A stretch of DNA of 39,639 bases from a virus. Taxonomy: Duplodnaviria; Caudoviricetes. The stretch spans positions 1 to 39,639 of IMG/VR virus record IMGVR_UViG_3300011417_000016. One strand, written 5' to 3'. Shown piece by piece: positions 4,087 through 36,465 of the stretch. The position numbers and the translations under genes are program-made. The notes under the pieces were generated by a model. The model did no database searches. It was given only the letters and a program-made list of their open reading frames with translations, and had not been told where the DNA came from. How positions within the stretch are numbered: the stretch's first letter is position 1; every line of letters starts with the position of its first letter.

Positions 4087-4159
4087 TGCCGCCGGCGGGA
4101 TTCGAACCCGCGACCTCCGCGTTATGAGCGCGGCGAGCCGGCCACTGCTCTACGGCGGA
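4087..4159 (-). tRNA. tRNA with CAT anticodon (Met; initiator-like features), no encoded CCA
   Basis: Cloverleaf TCCGCCG-TA-GAGC..GCTC-G-CCGCG-CT CAT AA-CGCGG-AGGTC-GCGGG TTCGAAT CCCGC-CGGCGGC-A. Confidence 0.9.
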
Positions 4160-4773: not shown

Positions 4774-4947
4774 TCAGGCCCTCCGCTGCTCGATCGTGGC
4801 CACACGCAGAGTCGCAGCCTTCTGCCGCTGCTTGTCGCGGTGCTTCTGCTGACATTCGTCGCGCAGCCACGCGTACTGCTGGCGCGGCCGACCGCACCAG
4901 GCGCAGTTCCCGTCGCGGACCCGCTGATAGTCGGACCGTCCGCTCAT
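4774..4947 (-). CDS. Small hypothetical protein (57 aa, CAWC)
   Basis: Manual translation MSGRSDYQRVRDGNCAWCGRPR...; ATGA-coupled to csrA; fills an operon gap. Confidence 0.55.
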   Translation of the reverse strand: MSGRSDYQRVRDGNCAWCGRPRQQYAWLRDECQQKHRDKQRQKAATLRVATIEQRRA

Positions 4948-5171
4948 CCCGCCAGCCCTCCGTCGCTCGGCCCGGCGGCTGCCGTGGCCGGCTCGCGGCG
5001 GGCCGCGTCCGCCTGCCGCCGGTGATGGACTTCCTCGCGATCCACGACGATGGTCTTGGGCGCCTCGATGCCCAGCCGGACCTTGCCGCCGCGGCGAGTC
5101 CCCAGGAACACCACGCGGACGTTGCCGCCGATCATGAGGGCCTCGCCTTCCTTGCGCGTCACGACGATCAT
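4944..5171 (-). CDS. csrA: Carbon storage regulator CsrA/RsmA
   Basis: MIVVTRKEGEALMIGGNVRVVFLG...VRLGIEAPKTIVVDREEV; SD AAGGAGG. Confidence 0.92.
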   Translation of the reverse strand: MIVVTRKEGEALMIGGNVRVVFLGTRRGGKVRLGIEAPKTIVVDREEVHHRRQADAARREPATAAAGPSDGGLAG

Positions 5172-9524: not shown

Positions 9525-10199
9525 ATGCGCGAGCTTGATATCCGCAAGGCCCTGCGCGACTTCCTCGTGGCCAGTCACGCCATCGACCAGGACACCCTCG
9601 TCGTCGATGAGCTGGGTCTCTGCCAAGGCGATGCCCGGGTCGATCTCGCCGTCATCAATGGCGCACTAAACGGCTACGAGATCAAGAGCGACCGCGACAC
9701 GCTGGACCGACTCCCTCGGCAGCGCGACTTCTATAGCCAGTGCTTCGAGCGGATGACGATCGTCGTCGGCCGCAAGCACATCCAGGCAGCACGTCGAGCC
9801 GTGCCCGCGTGGTGGGGCATCGTCGAAGCCGCCGACTGCAACGGCCAGGTTGTGCTAACCTCTATCCGGACCGCCAAGCCGAACCGAGCAATTCACCCCG
9901 AGGCCCTGGTCAAGTTCCTTTGGAAGAATGAACTCATCGCGGCCCTCCGCGAAGTCGGCGTGACCGGTGAGCTCAGGCACGACACGCGGCTTGAACTGCG
10001 CGCGAGGCTCACTGCAGCCGCTCCGGCCGGCGAGCTTCCCCGGCTCGTTCGCCTGCAGATCAAAGCGCGGGGTGAGTGGCGATCCCGTCCTTCACCGTTT
10101 CGAGGTGGTGGTTCACGCCGATCTTCCGCCAAGTCTCAGCGTTCCCAGGCGAACCTCCGGTGGTTGCTTTCGTGTGGATCTCAGCATCCCCAGCGCTGA
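9525..10199 (+). CDS. sce7726-family protein (PD-(D/E)XK nuclease-like)
   Basis: DELGLCQGDARVDLAVINGALNGYEIKSDRDTLDRLPRQ...PAWWGI. Confidence 0.85.
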   Translation: MRELDIRKALRDFLVASHAIDQDTLVVDELGLCQGDARVDLAVINGALNGYEIKSDRDTLDRLPRQRDFYSQCFERMTIVVGRKHIQAARRAVPAWWGIVEAADCNGQVVLTSIRTAKPNRAIHPEALVKFLWKNELIAALREVGVTGELRHDTRLELRARLTAAAPAGELPRLVRLQIKARGEWRSRPSPFRGGGSRRSSAKSQRSQANLRWLLSCGSQHPQR

Positions 10200-10500
10200 A
10201 TCCCTGACCGCGGTATTCCGGCCTGCCCACCAAATCCCGGCAGATCGAGATGAACTGACCATAACCGGCGGCGTGCGTGAACACATTGTGCCCCTTCCAA
10301 ATCAGGAACGCGTCCGGTGTGGTGTACCTGATCTGGGCGAGGATCGTTGCGCGACCGGTGGGCGGGAGGTCGGTGTGAGAAATGGCATAGTCCCCATAGG
10401 CCGGCAGCCGGGCCGGCTTCCGGCTCCGAGTGAAGAGACCTAGCCAGCCCAGCCAGTCGCAGCGCGCCGAGAGGCTCCAGCCCTTAGCGAGCGGTGCACG
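10060..10500 (-). pseudogene. C-terminal fragment of a Beta-family (sce7725-like) protein
   Basis: RCDWLGW...YGDYAISH...IRYT...GNAETWRKIGVNHHL; N-terminal part is absent and replaced by late-operon DNA. Confidence 0.7.
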
Positions 10501-10572
10501 ATGAATTCTTCGGGCGGAGTTTCTGCAAGTCAAGTTCGGCCAGCGCCAGCTGCAAACGATTCCAGGAGTGGC

Positions 10573-10731
10573 TCAGTTTCCCGGCGGTGGCGGCGGAGGC
10601 GTCTGAGACGCTTTCGCGTAGCGGACGATCGCGAGCGCCAGGTCAATCTCCGGCTTGGGGTCCGGCTTGATCTGGGCGATCGTCAGCAGCCCCTCGGCCG
10701 TCTCCAGGAGCGCGGTCAGTGTCAGGTTCAT
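10573..10731 (-). CDS. Small hypothetical protein, last gene of the late operon
   Basis: MNLTLTALLETAEGLL...; SD AAGGAAG/GGAGG. Confidence 0.5.
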   Translation of the reverse strand: MNLTLTALLETAEGLLTIAQIKPDPKPEIDLALAIVRYAKASQTPPPPPPGN

Positions 10732-10774
10732 TGCTTCCTTCCCTCCTGTGGTTTCCCGCCCGCATGTTGGGTTC

Positions 10775-11353
10775 CTACTTCCTCCGCAGCACGAACTCAA
10801 TCGCGGCTTCGGTCACCGGGTTCAAGGTCTGATCGACGCCGGCGGGCAGCGGCAGGTAGGTGGCCTCGAGCTTCTCGACCCGCAGCGGCTCGGCCAGGTC
10901 GTTGACGCCGGCGAGCAGCTCGAAGACGTTGATCGACGCCGGCGACCAGCTCGCCCTCTTCGACAGCGTGAACGTGTGCTTGTGGTCCCGGTTGAACCGC
11001 GGCGGCCACTTGCCCTGCTCGTAGAGGTCCTCGTCCGGAATGAGCACGACCAGGTGTCCGCCCGGTGTCACCACCTGACACCACCGCCGCAGGGCCACGT
11101 GCGGGTAGTAGAGATGCTCGAGGCAGTGCGACGAGTGCAGCCAGTCGAAGGCCCCGCATCGGATGCCGCGCAGGGCCTGGGCGTCGCCCTGCTTGCGGTC
11201 CCATCCCTTCACCGTGCCCATCCCGGGGAACAGGTGCCGCCACTGGCCGAGGCTGTCATGCCCGCAGCCCACGTCGATGCCGGCGCCCGCGAACCAGCGC
11301 ACGTAGGACACATCCCGCAGCCGACGGGCAATTGATTTACTCGTCTCGTTCAT
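10775..11353 (-). CDS. Class I SAM-dependent methyltransferase
   Basis: GIDVGCG motif I; FDWLHSSHCLEH; VTPGGHLVV. Confidence 0.88.
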   Translation of the reverse strand: MNETSKSIARRLRDVSYVRWFAGAGIDVGCGHDSLGQWRHLFPGMGTVKGWDRKQGDAQALRGIRCGAFDWLHSSHCLEHLYYPHVALRRWCQVVTPGGHLVVLIPDEDLYEQGKWPPRFNRDHKHTFTLSKRASWSPASINVFELLAGVNDLAEPLRVEKLEATYLPLPAGVDQTLNPVTEAAIEFVLRRK

Positions 11354-11412
11354 CCTTCTCTTCCCCTCATGGGCGATCGGGTTTACGCATCTGGTTAACG
11401 ACTTCCTCCCGG

Positions 11413-12150
11413 TCACTCGACGGCGAAGTCCGCCGGCGGCACGTGGTTGTACCAGGCGTCCGGCCTGGCGAAGTGCGTCCCCTGGTGGGCAGGCTCCTTG
11501 ACCTGCTGAACCTCGATGACGCAGGGGACCTTGAGCCCCTCGGCGATCGCCCGCGGGGAGCTCTGGTTGCCGACGAAGAGCCGGCAGCCGGCAATGACGC
11601 GGGCCACGTCGAGCAGGGTCGGCGTCGGCACGATCGCCACGTGGCCGACATTCGCTTCGAAGTCTGCGTGCTCCTCGTGAGTCCCGACAAAGCCGGCCCG
11701 CTTCCCGAAGCGGGCATGGAGTTCGCGCCAGGGGAAGCGTGAGTTGCGGTACCGCTGGGAGCGCGCGAACACCACGGGCGCCATGGCGTTCGGCTCGACC
11801 TGCAGCCAGCGGCCCGGCGGGCTGGCGGCGGCCAGGTCTCCCGAGTAAGGGGTGGCCAGCCAGTGGGCGTGCTGATCGGCGATGTTGAACCCATGCCGCC
11901 AGAAGCGGCGCTGGCCCACGTCGATGCGTACGCCCAGCGGCCGCTCGCGCCATTCCGCGCGGGCGATGTAGGACTGGGCCCGCAAGAGCGGCAGGATGTC
12001 CTCGGCGTGCTCCGCGCTCATGCGCACCCGCGTGTCGCCGGCGGGGCAGAGGTAGAACGTACACGGCGTGGCCGCCTCGTCGCACAGGAACTTGGTGGCC
12101 ATCAAGCTGTAGACGATGTCGCCGTAGTCGCCGTGGTGGCTGAAGATCAT
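11413..12150 (-). CDS. GT-B glycosyltransferase, GT9 (heptosyltransferase)-like
   Basis: N-terminal GDYGDIV; C-terminal LLDVARVIAGCRLFVGNQSSPRAIAEGLKVP. Confidence 0.8.
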   Translation of the reverse strand: MIFSHHGDYGDIVYSLMATKFLCDEAATPCTFYLCPAGDTRVRMSAEHAEDILPLLRAQSYIARAEWRERPLGVRIDVGQRRFWRHGFNIADQHAHWLATPYSGDLAAASPPGRWLQVEPNAMAPVVFARSQRYRNSRFPWRELHARFGKRAGFVGTHEEHADFEANVGHVAIVPTPTLLDVARVIAGCRLFVGNQSSPRAIAEGLKVPCVIEVQQVKEPAHQGTHFARPDAWYNHVPPADFAVE

Positions 12151-13157
12151 TGCCGTGCCCCCTGCCAAAACCTGGTTGCCTCGGTGCGGTTGACGATGTC
12201 CGATCGGCCGGCGCCCTGCCCGCACAGCAAAGGGTCGGGGCTGTAGACGCGGTGCGCCTCCTGCCAGCGACCGAAGCTGTGATCGATGTGCGTCCGGCTC
12301 TCAGCCCACAACGCGTACAGGGCCCGCATGACGTCGCGGCCCCGCACCACATAGGCGTGGGTGCGCTGGGCATAGACCACGCGGCGGACGCCGTCGGCGA
12401 TCGCCGGGGCCTTGGCCTGGTGTTCGCAGCCCAGCATGAGCCCCTGCCAGTCGCGCGGGACGCGGGCCAGGAACACATCGAGTCTGGCCGCGAACTCGGG
12501 CAGGAACACGCAGTCGTCTTCGAAGACCGTCAGCGTCTCGATGCCGTCGCGGAGAGCATCCTCGAGCACGCGCAGGTGTGATTGCCGGCAACCCCAGGCC
12601 CCGACGCCGCCACGCCAGTTGCCGGGGTGGGGCGAGAGCTGGCCGTCGATCGCCGGCACGCGCTCGATCTGGTCCCAGAGTGGAGACTGTAGGCCTGTTG
12701 TGGCCACAGTGAATTCCTGCAGCCGGTCGGGCCGGCGATCGAGGTTGATCACGACGGCCCGCTTGACGCCGAACTCGGCCGGCGTCGCCGGCGGTACTTC
12801 GCCCGGCGCGGGCAAAGGCGGCGGCGGATGTGGTTCACGCGTCCGGCAGCCGCGGCAGCGGGCCACGCCGTCGAGCTTCTTCGACAGCGTGCATTCGCCG
12901 TGCACGGCGCAGGCGAACACGCTCAGCTCGACGCCTCCGGTGCAGCTCGGGCACTCCTGCTTCCGCACCTCGGGCCCGCGATGAATGCACGGGAGCTGCT
13001 CGGCGACCTGGTCCCCGCCGATCCCGGACCACTTGTCCCACAGCCGGCGGTAGCGGCGGCCGAGGCGGTTGTCCATCTGGGACAGCGCCCGCTCGCGCAG
13101 CAGATGCGGCCGCTGGTGGCGGGCGCAAAAGTCGTGCTCGTCGAGTTGGCAGATCAT
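12147..13157 (-). CDS. Glycosyltransferase family 25 with N-terminal Cys-rich domain
   Basis: VVINLDRRPDRL...VPAIDG...GCRQSH...VFEDD...THAYVV; Cys-rich N-terminal region. Confidence 0.85.
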   Translation of the reverse strand: MICQLDEHDFCARHQRPHLLRERALSQMDNRLGRRYRRLWDKWSGIGGDQVAEQLPCIHRGPEVRKQECPSCTGGVELSVFACAVHGECTLSKKLDGVARCRGCRTREPHPPPPLPAPGEVPPATPAEFGVKRAVVINLDRRPDRLQEFTVATTGLQSPLWDQIERVPAIDGQLSPHPGNWRGGVGAWGCRQSHLRVLEDALRDGIETLTVFEDDCVFLPEFAARLDVFLARVPRDWQGLMLGCEHQAKAPAIADGVRRVVYAQRTHAYVVRGRDVMRALYALWAESRTHIDHSFGRWQEAHRVYSPDPLLCGQGAGRSDIVNRTEATRFWQGARQ

Positions 13158-14743
13158 TCGGTCACCAGGACGCTGATGGATGAGCCGGGCGGACAGGAAC
13201 CCAGGCCGCTGAAGGTGGTCATGTTCGTGCAAAAGGAGATTGGGTCACAACTGCATGCTCCGCACAGGCCGGTGTTGGCGAAGCCCGCGATGGAAATGAT
13301 GAACCCGTTGCAGGAGCCGCCGGTGCAGCAGAACTGAACGCTGACGCTCTGCCCGCACAGCGTCACAGTGCCCAGCCAGCAATTGCTGCCGTTCCATGTG
13401 AGCACTCCCGAAGCTGTCGCGTCTCCGGTTATCGAGACGTGCAGCGTCTCCGGTATCTCGTTCGGGCAGCAGCTCGTGACTCCGCCGCCGCCGCCGCCCC
13501 CGCCGCCTCCGCCCCCGCCGCCCGAGATGCAGTCGCACGTGCCCAGCGTGAAGGGCCCATCCCGGCAGATCAGCTCGCCGCAGACGTAGGTGTCGTAGTA
13601 CTCGCTGATCGTCGAGCCCGAGGCGGTCAGCGAGGTGAAGCTGCCGTGCAGGCCGCGGCACTCGACGATGTAGAGCGCTTGGCACTCGCGGCCGTGGGTG
13701 CCGCCCGAGCCCTCGAGCGTGGGCGGGCCGTCGTCATCGTCATCGTCGCGTTCAGCCTTGATCGGCGGGATGATGCTGTGGTAGACCGCGTTGAAGCGCA
13801 TGCCCACGAACAGCTTCTTGCCGCAGGTGGCCGCGACGTAGACGCGGTCCTTCATCGTGTTCTTCCAGGAGCACGTATCGATGTCGAACTCCTGGATGTT
13901 CCCCTCGAAGATGTGCAGCTTCTCGGAGTCGCAGATCGTGCAGTCGTCCTCCTCCTCGCCCGAGCCCGACCCGGAACCCGTGGGGCAGTAGACGCCGAGC
14001 TCCGCCTGGATGAGGATCTGCCGGACCGGATTGCTGGCATTGACCCCGTAGACCGGCGACGTCTGGACATAGGAGTTGCACGGCCCGTCGATCGGGTAGG
14101 CGATGGCGGTGGGGCCTTCCGGCCACTCATCGGAGAGGCGCTGGGCGAAGTAGCGCTTCCCCACCAAGAGCGGCTGGCCTTCAAGGTCGATGACCCCGAC
14201 GCAGGCGCCGTCGACCCACCGGTCGCAGTCGCGATCCCACGTCTGCAGTTGGCCGATGTGCATCCAGGAGAGGCAGGGCTGATCTTCGCCGGACCCAGCC
14301 GCCCCGGATCCCGTGCAGGTGGTGAGCGGGCCCATGGCGCTCGCCTTCTGGTAGATCTTCACGATCACCCGCTCGCCGGCGACCGTCACAGCGGGGGCGA
14401 ACACCAGCTTGCCGTCACTGTGTGTGGCGATGCAGCGCGCGAGATAATCCCGGCCTACATCGAGCTGGTCGCCGTTCCAGTCCTTGAGCCAGCACGCGTT
14501 CAGGTCGCCGTCGGCGTTCGTGGAGACGTCGTAGGATTTGATCCGGCCCGGGGCCCAGTCCGAAAAGGGTGCCCCCCCGGAGCCGACGGCCCCGGTGCAT
14601 TCGACGAGATGGACCAGCGGCGTCTTGTGCGCAGCGCGGCCCGGCCGCCGGCCGTCGCCGGCGGCCATGCCCTCCACTTCGCGGACGACGGCGCTGATGC
14701 GCGTGGCGTCCGCCTGTGTTGGCAGCCAGACTTCCTCGGGCAT
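13154..14743 (-). CDS. Cys-rich tail-tip/receptor-binding candidate with three internal repeats and a Gly14 linker
   Basis: Position after the tape measure; repeated motif G-x-[IL]-x-x-[YWF]-D...G-x-x-L-x-V-G-x-x-[YF]-x-A. Confidence 0.6.
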   Translation of the reverse strand: MPEEVWLPTQADATRISAVVREVEGMAAGDGRRPGRAAHKTPLVHLVECTGAVGSGGAPFSDWAPGRIKSYDVSTNADGDLNACWLKDWNGDQLDVGRDYLARCIATHSDGKLVFAPAVTVAGERVIVKIYQKASAMGPLTTCTGSGAAGSGEDQPCLSWMHIGQLQTWDRDCDRWVDGACVGVIDLEGQPLLVGKRYFAQRLSDEWPEGPTAIAYPIDGPCNSYVQTSPVYGVNASNPVRQILIQAELGVYCPTGSGSGSGEEEDDCTICDSEKLHIFEGNIQEFDIDTCSWKNTMKDRVYVAATCGKKLFVGMRFNAVYHSIIPPIKAERDDDDDDGPPTLEGSGGTHGRECQALYIVECRGLHGSFTSLTASGSTISEYYDTYVCGELICRDGPFTLGTCDCISGGGGGGGGGGGGGGVTSCCPNEIPETLHVSITGDATASGVLTWNGSNCWLGTVTLCGQSVSVQFCCTGGSCNGFIISIAGFANTGLCGACSCDPISFCTNMTTFSGLGSCPPGSSISVLVTE

Positions 14744-24720: not shown

Positions 24721-24803
24721 GCGGCATCAGCTGGCGGCGCGTGATCCGGCGGCGACTCCAGGAGGGCCCCGCCGCGGGATCATGCGCCGCCAGCTGATGC
24801 CGC
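24721..24803. repeat. 34-bp inverted repeat (2 mismatches, 15-nt loop) over the methylase stop codon
   Basis: 24721-24754 vs 24770-24803. Confidence 0.9.
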
Positions 24804-25616
24804 TGGATTGATCGGCCCTCGAGAAACAAACGCCTCCGCCAGAATGGCCTGGCGTTCCAAGTCGGGGAGGCGCTGCAGGCCGGCCGCCCAGGTCCGGACC
24901 TTCCGGGCGATCCGCTCGCGCTCCCGCTTCTCGTCGCCGAGGTAGCGGTAGTCGTGCAGCTCGGCCGGCTCGGGATAGTTCATCCACAGGAACTCCCGGG
25001 CCACCCGGTTTCCCCTGGTGACCGCGTTGAACGAAATCGACCGCCACTTCTGCAGGGCCGCGGCATAGAGCGGCGACCAGTAGCCGGAGATCGCCACCGG
25101 GCAGGGGAGCTGGTTGGCGACGTCGAGCAGCTCCTCGTGCTGCTCGGGGGTCATTTCGTAGCGGTACAGCTTGCGACGCGAACGGCGCGTGGAAAGCAGG
25201 TAGGGCGGATCGAAGTAGACGAACCAGCGGGATCCCGCCGCACGATCGTGCGACGCCGGATCCGCGGGCGGTCGGCCGACGCCGACGCATCCCGCGACCG
25301 CAGCTGCGGTCGCATGATCCGTCGGCTTCTCCCGGGCTACGCGGTAGAGGGCAAACGTGTGCTTGAGCCACTCGATGCCACAGCAGCAGTACACCTCGAC
25401 CTGATGGTCACCGCCGCCAGATGCTGCGTCCTCGCCGGCGAATCGGGCCGCGACCGCGGCGTCGATCTCGACGCCGATCGTCCGTGCGGCTGGACGCTTC
25501 CTGCGCAGGACCGCCCCGTCGCCGAGGCACGGCTCGACGTAGACGTCGTGCGGCGGGATCTGGTTGATGATCCGCTGGTAGACTCCGGCGCCAGCCTTTC
25601 CGCCTGGATAACCCAT
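24780..25616 (-). CDS. DNA adenine methyltransferase (Dam/D12 class)
   Basis: YPGGK, YVEPCLGDG (motif I), FVYFDPPY (motif IV), AISGY, EFLWMNY. Confidence 0.9.
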   Translation of the reverse strand: MGYPGGKAGAGVYQRIINQIPPHDVYVEPCLGDGAVLRRKRPAARTIGVEIDAAVAARFAGEDAASGGGDHQVEVYCCCGIEWLKHTFALYRVAREKPTDHATAAAVAGCVGVGRPPADPASHDRAAGSRWFVYFDPPYLLSTRRSRRKLYRYEMTPEQHEELLDVANQLPCPVAISGYWSPLYAAALQKWRSISFNAVTRGNRVAREFLWMNYPEPAELHDYRYLGDEKRERERIARKVRTWAAGLQRLPDLERQAILAEAFVSRGPINPAASAGGA

Positions 25617-25709
25617 CGCTGCGACCTCTGCCGTCCACGGCCGCTCAAAACGTCGGCCCGTCGGCATGGTCGCACAATCCTGCGGCGGCGTCAAGCGCCC
25701 CCGGTTCGA

Positions 25710-32636: not shown

Positions 32637-33494
32637 CTACTGCGGCGGCCCCTGTGGATTGACGAAAGCCCCTGTGGCCCCCGCTGGGTTCGCCGGCGTG
32701 CTATCGGCTCCGGTTCCACCGGCCTGCGTCTCGGCCCCGACGGGATATCGCCGCGCGAACGCCATGGCGCTGGTGGCGGTGATGCCGCGGATCGCCCGCA
32801 GATCGTTTTCCGTCGGCGTCCAGCCCGCGTCGTGGCGCTCTTCGGTGGTCTCGTGACTGATGGCCCACTTGAGCGGGTTGAAGGTTTTCCAGTCGTCCTC
32901 CGGGATCACCAGGTCCGCCTCGTTGGCCTTGTCGCGGCTGTACCCGAAGTACTTGGTGGCCATGTGGAACAGGATCCGGCGGACGTACTGGCCGATGTCG
33001 GCCGCGAAGAGCTGGGTCACCTCGATGGCCTTGTCCGCCTCGCTGTGCTGCATGGCCTCGGTCAGGCAGCGCAGGCACAAGTCACACCACTCGGCCAGGT
33101 CCTGGTTCCGAATGGCGTCGCCAAAGAAGGGCACCGGGTAGAGGATGAACTCCTTGCGGAAGCGGCCCGAGTGTTTGGGCTGCATCTGGTTTTCGTGCTC
33201 GGGGATGGCGCGGTCGAGGAGCCGTTTGCGACCGAGCGTGCAGAGCTGGTAGACGTCCCAGCAGGTTTGCTTGCTCACCGGCCGAACGAAGTCCTTGTCC
33301 TCGCGGTGCATGATGTCGAACAGGGCCCGGCCGATCGTGTTCACGAATCCCCATACCGTGCCGTTCACACACCACACCTTGCCGCCTGGGTTGGCAACGC
33401 CGTAGCCGGCGGCGCCCCAGCGGCCGTTGTAATACCACAGCGGCTCATCGGTGCCGAACGGTTCGCTCGTGACTGTTTTGGTCTCGTCGGGCAT
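32637..33494 (-). CDS. Hypothetical protein (285 aa)
   Basis: SD AAGGAGG; strong coding bias; no motif recognised. Confidence 0.8.
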   Translation of the reverse strand: MPDETKTVTSEPFGTDEPLWYYNGRWGAAGYGVANPGGKVWCVNGTVWGFVNTIGRALFDIMHREDKDFVRPVSKQTCWDVYQLCTLGRKRLLDRAIPEHENQMQPKHSGRFRKEFILYPVPFFGDAIRNQDLAEWCDLCLRCLTEAMQHSEADKAIEVTQLFAADIGQYVRRILFHMATKYFGYSRDKANEADLVIPEDDWKTFNPLKWAISHETTEERHDAGWTPTENDLRAIRGITATSAMAFARRYPVGAETQAGGTGADSTPANPAGATGAFVNPQGPPQ

Positions 33495-33504
33495 GGGGCC
33501 TCCT

Positions 33505-34932
33505 TCAGGACGCAGGTTGTGGCTGGCCGCTCATGATCTGCGTGGCCAGGTCGTTGACGAATTTGATGGTGTTGATGCTGCCGGGGTATTTGTCCGCACA
33601 GACAGCGAGTGCGTGCCTGAGTGCCTGAGCTTCGTGGTTGGACTCCTCATAGGGGACGAAGCTCTGTTGAGTCCTGATGACCTGCTCGGGCTGTTCCGGC
33701 GTCGTGACGACGACTCGCTCAGGAGGCGGGCTCGGCGGCTGCCGGTTCAGGAGCGTCGCCAGTGCAGCCTCGATTTGCGCGAGCCGACGGGCCAGGCGGC
33801 TGTCCGCCTGCGTCCCACCGTTCGGTGCCGGAAACGGCGGCGCTGCGGGAGGCGTGGCGCCTGCGGCTGGCGGTGGCTGCGGGGCCGCACCGCCCCTGGC
33901 GGCTCGACGCAAACGCAGGAGGCCCCGTAGACCCCAGATGCCCAGCCCGATCACCCCGCCGACAGGTCCGCCGATCGCGCCTGCGGCAATAGGGCCGAGC
34001 CAGCTTGCGTAGGGCTCAACGCGCTCGGCGATGTCGAGGGCGCGGCCCAGCTTCGAATCGTCGGCCGGCTTACCATCCTTCCCATCCACCCCGTCGCGGC
34101 CGTCTTTGCCATCGCGGCCAGGAGCTGGTGACCACGGTGCTTGCGGTGCAGGCCCAGGAACTGGGGGCTTATCCCCCCCGTTCTGAGGGGGGGCAGGGCG
34201 ACGCTGGAACCATCGCTCGCAGACGCGCTCATAAAACGCCACGGTCCGCTCGTACGACGTCGCCAGGGTGCGCTTGTCGTCGGTGCGGCTGTGCAGGACG
34301 CTGACGAGCTCGCCGCGGAGGTTGAAGATGCCGCCGCCGCTGTCGCCGCTGCGGGCTTCCGTCGAAATCCAAAGCGTGCCAGCGTTGAGGACTGCCGTTC
34401 CCTGCCCCACGTCCATGACGCGATTCGTTGCCGCCGGATAGCCGACCTTCAGGACCTCTTCGAGCGGCTTGGGTGCAACCGCAGCGACCTGAACGGTGGG
34501 CACGCGTAGCGCTTCGCCAACCTTGGCGGCAATCTCCACGGCTGCCAGATCATGGCCGAACTTGTCGGTGCCCAGGACGGCGCCGGTGAACTTCTGGCCG
34601 TCCGGGAAAATGACGGCCATCGTCTGGTGGCCAGCGGCGACGTGCTGGCAGGTCAGGATCAAGGCGTGCCGTTCGTCGGCCCAGACGCACGTCCCGGAGC
34701 CGCCAGAGCGATCGCCGTCAACCTTCACGCTGGCCGCGCACGCGACCTTCGCCTCGGCGGTCCGCGGTGCCGGCCGCGCGTAGGACGGCGGGCGAGCGGC
34801 TGAGCTTGGCGGCAGTGGATAGCTGCGATCGAAGGGCGCACGGCCCTCTGGGGGGCAGGTCAGTCAGCCAGGCCGCTGCGCATAGGCCGCGGCCGGCATG
34901 ATCAACAGCAGCAGAAAGGCAAAGCGTTTCAC
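33505..34932 (-). CDS. Secreted trypsin-like serine protease with collagen-like repeat and TM helix; in-frame TGA at codon 23 (candidate Sec/readthrough)
   Basis: SD GGAGG plus GTG 34932; signal peptide MKRFAFLLLLIMPAAAYA; triad LTCQH / HDLA / GDSGG; GRDGKDGRDGVDGKDG. Confidence 0.8.
34823..34866 (-). other. In-frame UGA and candidate bacterial SECIS hairpin
   Basis: UGA-CUGAC-CUGC-CCCCCA-GAGGGC-CGUGC-GCCCUU-CGAUC-GCAG. Confidence 0.5.
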
Positions 34933-35034
34933 TGGGCGGACCTCCGGGACATGCCGCATGCAAGGTCGTAGCCCCGCCCGCTCCGCCCGTCGTTCCCACG
35001 CGGATTGGGCAGGGCTGACCCCATGTTCCAGCCC

Positions 35035-35604
35035 TCAATTCGGGATCGAGCTGTAAAGGCACTGCCACGCAGTGCAGTGCCGGCAAAAGTCGTCGATGTC
35101 GTCGGGAGCCAGCGATTGCCACGGCGCCCCGAACATCTGGCGGCGGAGCACGGTGTCGTAGGCCCAGCCCCAATACTGCGAGCACACAAACCACGGGAGC
35201 TGTCCCAGGCCCTCGGTGAACCAGGTCGTCCGCCGGCCGCGGCGAAGCATGGTGGCCACCGCGTCGGCCGCGAACAGGGGCAGCTTCAGCGGGGCATACC
35301 ACCGGCCGAAGCACTCCATGGCCTTGAGGGCGATCCGCCGCCGCTCGCCGTCGGTCAGGTACACGTTCCGCCAGACCACGACGGGCGTGCCGGCGTAGGC
35401 GCTCAGCGGCGTACGCTTGATGCGCCAGCGCGACTCCAGGACCTCCGGCACAGGCGACAAGGCGCCCAGGCTGCCGGCGATGTGGTTCACACGGCAGTCC
35501 CCGCTCATGAGGACGCCAGTGGCCCGGATGAGACGGCCGCAGCGGCCATCCGTGCGCACGCCGACGATGTCGGCGGGCCAGAGCTCCGGGAAAGCGTTCC
35601 GCAC
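35035..35604 (-). CDS. Permuted papain-like NlpC/P60 (YiiX/YebB-like) amidase
   Basis: LWPADIV...VNHIA (His)...FGRWY...WFVCSQY (Cys)...LAPDD. Confidence 0.75.
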   Translation of the reverse strand: MRNAFPELWPADIVGVRTDGRCGRLIRATGVLMSGDCRVNHIAGSLGALSPVPEVLESRWRIKRTPLSAYAGTPVVVWRNVYLTDGERRRIALKAMECFGRWYAPLKLPLFAADAVATMLRRGRRTTWFTEGLGQLPWFVCSQYWGWAYDTVLRRQMFGAPWQSLAPDDIDDFCRHCTAWQCLYSSIPN

Positions 35605-35834
35605 TACGCGCCCTCCGGACGGTAGAGGCGGAGGCGCTGGATGTCCTCGCGCAGCGTCTTGTGGTGTTCGGCAGCCTGCCGGCGATCCGCTTCACGCTCT
35701 TCACGGTGGACGCGCAGGATGCGAGTGATCTGGCTGACGAACACCTTGAGCGTGTAGAAGTGCAGCACGGCGAGGACGGCCAAGGCTGCCCCGGCGATGC
35801 CGTACTGGAGGAGGGATTCGAGGATGGGGCTCAT
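35604..35834 (-). CDS. Holin-like membrane protein
   Basis: LLQYGIAGAALAVLAVL TM followed by a charged coiled-coil; first late gene. Confidence 0.6.
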   Translation of the reverse strand: MSPILESLLQYGIAGAALAVLAVLHFYTLKVFVSQITRILRVHREEREADRRQAAEHHKTLREDIQRLRLYRPEGA

Positions 35835-36051: not shown

Positions 36052-36465
36052 TCACGCGCCGGTCCGTGCCTCGAGTGCGGCTTGGTTCAGGAACCGGGCC
36101 AGCGACCAGGCCTTCAGCTCGGCGCGGGTGCCCTCAGCCACGCGCTGACAGACGAATTCGAGCGCTCGGTCCTCGGCGGCGTCGACGGACGCCACCGCAC
36201 CCAGGATTGGCCCTTCGACGGCCTCGACGATGTCCAGCATGGAGATGCTCTCCGGCCGCCGGGCCAGGCAGTAGCCGCCCCTCGGGCCCTTGACGCTGCG
36301 CAGGATCCCGGCCGCGGCCAGGGGTCGGAGGACCTTGCGGAGGTAGCGATCGGGGATCTTCCGGGCGCGGGCGATGACGTGCGAAGAGCAACGCTGGCCG
36401 CGGGGCTCGCCGGCCAGATGGGCGCAAGCCGCGGTCGCGTACTGGCAACTCCGGTTCAACCTCAT
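36052..36465 (-). CDS. Rrf2-family transcriptional regulator
   Basis: IPDRYLRKVL...GILRSVKGPRGGYCLARRPESISMLDIVEAVEGP. Confidence 0.92.
   Translation of the reverse strand: MRLNRSCQYATAACAHLAGEPRGQRCSSHVIARARKIPDRYLRKVLRPLAAAGILRSVKGPRGGYCLARRPESISMLDIVEAVEGPILGAVASVDAAEDRALEFVCQRVAEGTRAELKAWSLARFLNQAALEARTGA

Follow-up and report, generated by a model that had tools for sequence, protein, structure and literature searches.

Is the lone in-frame TGA in a protease gene of this virus a stop, a lesion or a codon for selenocysteine (Sec, U)? The window, by which I mean the whole virus record of 39,639 bases that was analysed, has direct terminal repeats and a G+C content of 67%, with terminase, portal, head protease, major head and tape-measure genes on its minus strand, and the protease gene lies in a late-gene, co-oriented block. 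The first-pass annotation had extended this gene 68 codons ahead of the called start at 34728, and the sequence bears this out in full: a Shine-Dalgarno GGAGG (34941..34945, minus strand, like every feature of this gene given below) stands 8 nt before a GTG (34930-34932), from which a frame of 475 codons (33505..34932) runs to a terminal TGA at 33505-33507, and the inner starts at 34728 and 34620 are both without a Shine-Dalgarno. The gene reads, in order, signal peptide, U-x-x-C tip, Pro-rich linker, trypsin-like protease, G-x-D repeats, hydrophobic helix pair and helical tail, an architecture common to its homologues. The predicted signal peptide, judged by eye, covers residues 1-18 (34879..34932) with cleavage after AYA, and directly after the cleavage site the tip reads Q-R-P-G-stop-L-T-C-P-P. 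The sole interruption is the TGA at 34864..34866 (codon 23, the predicted Sec), three codons before its partner Cys26 (34855..34857) in a U-L-T-C motif that appears as U-P-T-C and U-R-N-C in homologues. The observation itself, an in-frame TGA with an upstream coding frame and a hairpin, is confirmed.

The same TGA stands at codon 23, with no differing letter and no sense allele, in all five runs that cover the site (X2, X3, X4, X6 and X9), eight of the 13 public runs that contain the stretch having been compared (X5, X7 and X8 do not reach the codon); the comparison is of contigs, not reads, contigs drop rare variants, and X2 and X3 are possible sources of the record. No RNA run is listed among these public runs. 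Elsewhere in the genome TGA is an ordinary stop, as had been claimed: it ends at least 31 plausible genes, including portal, terminase and the protease gene itself, so the window uses the standard genetic code, and a stop-codon-recoded phage, with TGA inside many genes and unused as a stop, is excluded. Genome-wide reassignment of TGA in phage or host has next to no probability, since the terminal TGAs also abut the next starts and the single tRNA encoded in the window is a tRNA-Met (CAT, 4087-4159), which is the only match in an Rfam scan of the window. The 39,639-base record holds no selA, selB or tRNA-Sec, again as first described, and no sigma-70 promoter-like site was found in the window between 32000 and 37000.

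By its sequence the product is a trypsin-like serine peptidase with a His-Asp-Ser triad: the Trypsin_2 domain (PF13365, 34303..34701) scores 59.5 bits against a cut-off of 27.6, and H97, D128 and S198 are intact and invariant in homologue alignment A1. In the structure model a trypsin fold is predicted with confidence over about residues 59-243, the tip is disordered (residues 19-51 mostly at pLDDT <50), and the best PDB matches are DegS protease domains (E 2e-13). The protein is alike to the HtrA/DegS periplasmic proteases in protease fold, triad and exported location (predicted for the window protein), but an identity as HtrA, DegP or DegS was rejected, as there is no PDZ domain, the scores fall far below the NCBIfam cut-offs, and a Pro-rich, collagen-like, hydrophobic tail stands instead. 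Short collagen-like G-x-D repeats lie at approximately 34060..34122, and a Gly-rich hydrophobic segment followed by basic residues, a possible membrane anchor according to sequence, homologues and model, at approximately 33925..34000. A thioredoxin-fold selenoprotein with UxxC at the start of a helix was considered and set aside, the window protein having no thioredoxin match in Pfam and its tip residues being disordered.

Is the TGA shared by relatives? Viral, metagenome and genome contigs were scanned with degenerate patterns, and together with genome searches this gave 227 loci after 13 duplicates, a SelD set and a direct-motif set had been dropped, and 166 of these have a near-full domain; the counts are a sample, because the metagenome scan covered 7 of its 64 parts. 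Seven of the 166 read signal peptide, TGA, domain: two IMG/VR records (L011 and L084) and five metagenome contigs of phage or other origin (L132, L154, L157, L184 and L192). In 81 others the signal peptide is intact, in 76 the N-terminus is long and open or the contig ends there, two are unclassified, and in none of the 166 does TAA or TAG occupy the TGA position. The motif is U-P-T-C in four of the seven, U-R-N-C in one, U-x4-C in L154 and U without a Cys in L157. Four of these, L011, L132, L184 and L192, belong together at 66-93% identity, and with the window there are about five TGA lineages, whose protease domains are 33-50% identical to one another. What aligns with the TGA elsewhere is Cys: the orthologues L067 and L095 have TGC (C-P-T-C) where L011, at 71% identity, has TGA (U-P-T-C), and a Trp or Arg pattern was not seen at this position among the homologues. 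The window protein itself has no close Cys orthologue, the match being at the level of the motif, at about 34-39% domain identity.

Other searches came back empty: no relative was found in viral contigs with the window protein as query, in the genome search with alignment A3, or, as a close relative, among cultured phages and plasmids, and a direct U-x-x-C-P...G-Q DNA pattern run over viral contigs gave 40 loci; two of these had been found before, and none of the others has a trypsin domain. Among the homologues are proteins that fuse a thioredoxin to the trypsin domain (L035, P0098 and many of the loci within L096-L213); they are common in the metagenome scan, and one viral contig has one.

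A hydrophobic segment precedes the protease domain in 114 of 158 near-full-domain database homologues, and 71 of these 114 carry at least two Cys in the linker, 40 of them as C-x4-C. The typical tip is Q-C-P-G-G-x-C-P directly after the cleavage site; C-x4-C is the common spacing, C-x2-C occurs in only three homologues, and 31 of the 114 have no linker Cys. The upstream frame, to judge from these sequences, belongs to the protease gene, and a Cys-pair motif in most relatives suggests a chemical job for the residue itself. The remaining 44 of the 158 are without a signal peptide, several of them on contigs of 13-161 kb, and they include P0021 (the closest relative), P0022, P0023, P0025, P0033, P0039, P0045 and P0072. 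Such signal-less entries are probably further hidden TGA forms. The two that were compared at the DNA level, P0030 and P0060, correspond to L157 and L154, both TGA forms. Signal-less entries make up 22 of 40 entries within the subtree spanning the TGA forms against 22 of 118 outside it (Fisher p 3e-5), an enrichment that is a lead only, because support for the subtree is 0.46, kin are non-independent and some entries will be contig ends; the tree position of the window protein is as weakly supported (0.46).

Does the RNA carry a signal for Sec? The first-pass annotation had described a two-tier hairpin with a CGUGC loop starting 21 nt after the UGA, and it folds as claimed (34823..34858, including a weak 4-bp lower stem), being present in the minimum-energy fold and lost from the centroid of a 77-nt fold. 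Its upper stem-loop (34832..34848) has 6 bp, a C-G closing pair and a 5-nt loop whose second and third bases are G and U, and this upper part is common to the homologues; the lower stem CUGC/GCAG is not evidently shared. In all eight TGA loci (the window and the seven) a C-G-closed stem carries a loop of 4-5 nt that begins 19-25 nt after the UGA and has G as its second base. The first loop base is C in the window and A in the others, matching stem positions hold G-C, C-G, U-A and A-U pairs, and the hairpin encodes different residues, namely G-Q in most loci, G-R in the window and F-Q in L154. In an independent set, planctomycete SelD genes mostly have a C-G-closed AGGU loop 31 nt after the UGA. 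The Cys form L067 keeps a remnant hairpin, and remnant SECIS hairpins in Cys forms have been described for other families (PMC1794560).

The hairpin stands above chance because it is conserved in homologues; fold energy does not lift it, the window hairpin being no more stable than dinucleotide shuffles (z -0.73 to +1.43). A loose SECIS rule was discarded as uninformative, as it passes 759 of the 875 TGA triplets in the window. A stricter rule, written after both the phage and the host sets had been seen, passes all eight phage-type loci, 11 of 16 Sec-SelD genes (the 16 of 26 that were located by script) and the Cys orthologue L067, against a background of 98 of 875 window TGAs (11%), two of 31 terminal TGAs and two of 16 Cys homologues of the C-x4-C type. 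When the window is shuffled synonymously, 3.45% of the shuffles pass this rule and 1.15% yield an equally stable hairpin, and in six of seven homologues 27-51% pass, because Gly-Gln or similar codons supply the motif. Covariation, which the first-pass annotation had named as a test of the hairpin, was not significant: pair counts on six hairpins failed to beat column shuffles (77/500 and 138/500), though sliding the stem register lowered pairing from 83% to 33-61%. The pair table of the hairpins was anchored by hand, MAFFT having misaligned these short elements. A covariance model of six homologue hairpins returned 47 matches at E<=10, from which the hairpins of the window and L154 are absent.

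Who would supply the Sec? I infer from the genomes of relatives that the host belongs to the Planctomycetota. The sole genome-contig pattern match is a Planctomycetota MAG, and protease relatives are also located in genomes of this phylum; in searches that covered Planctomycetota as the only phylum, the capsid finds 35-41% matches in 4 of 401 genomes (24-31% in cultured phages) and a 285-aa partner gene of the protease is present in 5 of 401. The Sec trait looks very widespread here, to go by its genes: selA is over the cut-off in 290 of the 401 genomes, and among chosen selA-positive genomes selD was found in 40 of 40, selB in 19 of 20 and tRNA-Sec in 19 of 20. Nine Planctomycetota genomes with related prophage genes gave selB in none and one marginal tRNA-Sec match, which counts against Sec decoding in the window; the proteases observed in these genomes have either Cys or no motif, as would suit Cys forms living in hosts that do not use Sec. 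No tRNA-Sec is present in the three viral records G431-G433, and family-level genome searches around G100 (one genome) and G332 (four genomes) found nothing.

A class-level search gave 30 loci, one of which (L323, in genome G592) reads C-x5-TGA, with the stop at the second Cys of the motif (L323:1405-1407; G592:C59). Its hairpin has 7 bp and a loop starting GGUC 21 nt after the TGA, 1.35% of shuffles are as stable, and G592 carries selA, selB and tRNA-Sec. L323 is a trypsin-like paralogue in a context that does not look like phage, and a candidate new cellular selenoprotein of the Planctomycetota; if the candidate is genuine, Sec and Cys have been exchanged in this motif a second time, at a separate position.

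What, then, happens at the UGA? Most likely this is a conserved recoding site for selenocysteine in a bacterial-type selenoprotein carried by phages, and I consider it very probable that a Sec-using planctomycete host inserts Sec there, since the recurrent TGA in the family, the Cys orthologue, the SelD-like hairpins and the L323/G592 case all make host-dependent insertion likely; the site-specific, host-reliant recoding first proposed has gained ground through the conserved TGAs and hairpins, the Cys orthologues and the spread of Sec machinery in the phylum. That Sec decoding further provides a working U/C motif in an exported protease, its role in lysis apart, is probable as well. A nonsense mutation in a pseudogene, or a true start at the inner GTG 34728 or ATG 34620 that gives a cytoplasmic protease, is very improbable: the same stop, always TGA, recurs in five lineages at 33-50% identity, x-T/N-C-P is conserved after it in most of them, the triad is intact, five runs show no sense allele and the inner starts have no Shine-Dalgarno, although database gene calls do begin there (P0016, P0002) and the ordinary stops of the genome are often TGA. 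Leaky read-through by a near-cognate tRNA for Trp or Cys, as known for the Q-beta coat UGA, would require no selenium, with the hairpin either stimulating it or arising from codon choice. In E. coli UGA-C stops translation weakly, and C follows seven of the eight phage-type TGAs against eight of 31 terminal TGAs in the window, but the Pro, Leu and Arg codons that come next also dictate this C; and while the non-significant covariation suits leakiness, the alignment of Cys rather than Trp with the TGA, the lack of TAG or TAA cases and the likeness of the loops to host SelD SECIS elements speak against it and leave it improbable. Sec could also be inserted with the residue itself mattering little, the UGA then limiting the amount of protease or tying it to host selenium, in the manner of the selenium- or redox-responsive switch proposed in the first-pass annotation; L157, which keeps TGA and hairpin but has no partner Cys, the 31 of 114 homologues without a linker Cys and the disordered tip all agree with such a throttle. 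It is nevertheless rather unlikely, because a pure throttle needs no placement at Cys positions, and the TGA sits at those of a widespread Cys-pair motif (the first in phages, the second in L323).

If Sec insertion with a working U/C motif is taken as the preferred reading, the following course can be imagined. Translation would begin at GTG 34932, and the SelB-Sec-tRNA of the host, bound at the hairpin, would decode codon 23 as Sec, whereas termination at the UGA would leave only a 22-residue peptide. Export and cleavage after Ala18 would leave U on a flexible, Pro-rich arm, five residues in from the new N-terminus, and the hydrophobic segment near residues 311-336 may anchor the enzyme. The U/C tip might then exchange with disulfides of Cys-rich wall proteins, tethering the enzyme or loosening cross-links, before the protease cuts the wall at lysis together with holin-like and C92-like neighbours. 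The YTV wall proteins are disulfide-cross-linked. Planctomycetia walls contain these Cys-rich YTV proteins (PMC8567305, PMC12673574), and an attack on the wall by a redox-tipped protease is favoured on account of such walls, the lysis-like neighbours and the thioredoxin-trypsin fusions among homologues; I would still give this attack on a disulfide-linked protein wall during lysis somewhat less than an even chance.

The neighbourhood is a candidate lysis-like cassette, with the holin and C92 labels given by shape, position and leads. Upstream on the same strand lies a gene with a permuted papain-like (Peptidase_C92-like) lead and candidate His and Cys motifs (35035..35604), whose protein cluster has PF05708 in 12% of members (score 0.95) and which has no Pfam or PHROG match of its own; next to it (35604..35834, minus strand) is a small membrane protein with one helix, whose likeness to a holin lies only in shape and position and which has no significant family match in Pfam or PHROG. 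On the other side, the 285-aa conserved partner gene of no known family (32637..33494, minus strand) has its AGGAGG overlapping the protease stop, and it directly follows the protease in 12 matches (11 distinct loci) and in three more. The protease, with Sec inserted, might instead act at the surface or in the periplasm in lysogeny, superinfection exclusion or entry, a possible though doubtful role to which the cellular paralogues outside a phage context (L323), a collagen-like stalk and membrane segment suited to surface display, and holin and amidase labels that are leads only would lend themselves; the location in a late block of co-oriented genes next to a small membrane protein in the window, with such one-helix genes also near L011, L067, L084 and L154, and the conserved partner adjoining the protease in many prophage loci point away from it. 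The fullest version of the lysis reading, in which a phage family borrows the Sec machinery of its hosts for a wall-opening lysis protease, release depends on selenium, Sec has entered the motif at least twice and at either Cys, and many members are mis-annotated as signal-less, is as a whole rather doubtful.

How does this compare with what is known? The gene is alike to E. coli in-ORF SECIS genes of the fdhF type in its in-frame UGA, 3' hairpin with an early loop G, Cys homologues and U-x-x-C, and unlike them in being phage-borne without sel genes and in having its predicted Sec within a short, disordered stretch behind a signal peptide, with no thioredoxin or oxidoreductase fold. The mechanism of such bacterial genes is summarised in PMC9312934 and PMC1794560, and the former gives the Sec/Cys homologue pair as a criterion for selenoproteins in the field. 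The trypsin-like serine protease selenoproteins of the GOS data share the trypsin fold and a predicted Sec replacing Cys, but their Sec lies within a COG5640 domain after the catalytic Ser motif (PMC2398784), whereas the window protein has its predicted Sec about 40 residues before a Trypsin_2-type domain; membership of that family was rejected, as the Sec is outside and ahead of the protease domain. The GOS putative secreted serine protease MucD (C-x-x-U) is alike in having a signal peptide and then a Sec/Cys redox motif and unlike in its thioredoxin-like C-x-x-U domain, its listed sequences being without a trypsin domain (PMC2398784); PMC9312934 lists it as a PDZ/Thioredoxin_7 protein, and the main text of PMC2398784 does not mention phage. 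Among viruses, the glutathione peroxidases of the poxviruses molluscum contagiosum virus and fowlpox virus are likewise virus-encoded and use host Sec machinery, but these are eukaryotic viruses with captured host genes and a eukaryotic SECIS (PMC8310308).

These peroxidases are the viral selenoproteins found in print, which makes a phage-carried case, if the prediction is right, new as far as found: no described phage selenoprotein or protease family of this kind turned up in a literature search with subscription journals mostly outside it, and the words phage, protease and trypsin are absent from the main texts of a 2026 review (PMC13188914) and of deep-Sep (PMC12013277), whose supplements may list such proteins. 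Most metalloprotein and selenoprotein families have no or very few viral sequences in GOS (PMC9402790), a statement that leaves room for a few viral selenoproteins. Should the reading hold, phages would use the 21st amino acid of their host in a late gene, Sec would occupy the free N-terminal tip of a protein that is no oxidoreductase, the yield of phage in sediments and groundwater could be influenced by a trace element, and there would be a reason why many database relatives seem to be without a signal peptide, together with a testable way to study how the protein-rich envelope of planctomycetes is broken by phages. The GOS_A selenoprotein, for its part, resembles an HGGxSTG-type protein, which I take to be a type found in prophages, and in that case the literature may already contain phage selenoproteins that went unrecognised.

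A few further genes of the window deserve mention. Near the protease block, at 36052-36465, is an Rrf2-family regulator (PF02082, E 1e-27), a family whose proteins are often redox or Fe-S sensors, and a CsrA-family translational regulator (PF02599, E 3e-15) is encoded at 4944-5168. Frames at 10060-13232, after the tail genes, have glycosyltransferase family 25, methyltransferase and Beta-protein matches, and a D12-class adenine methyltransferase-like gene (24780-25694) lies between the head protease and major head genes.
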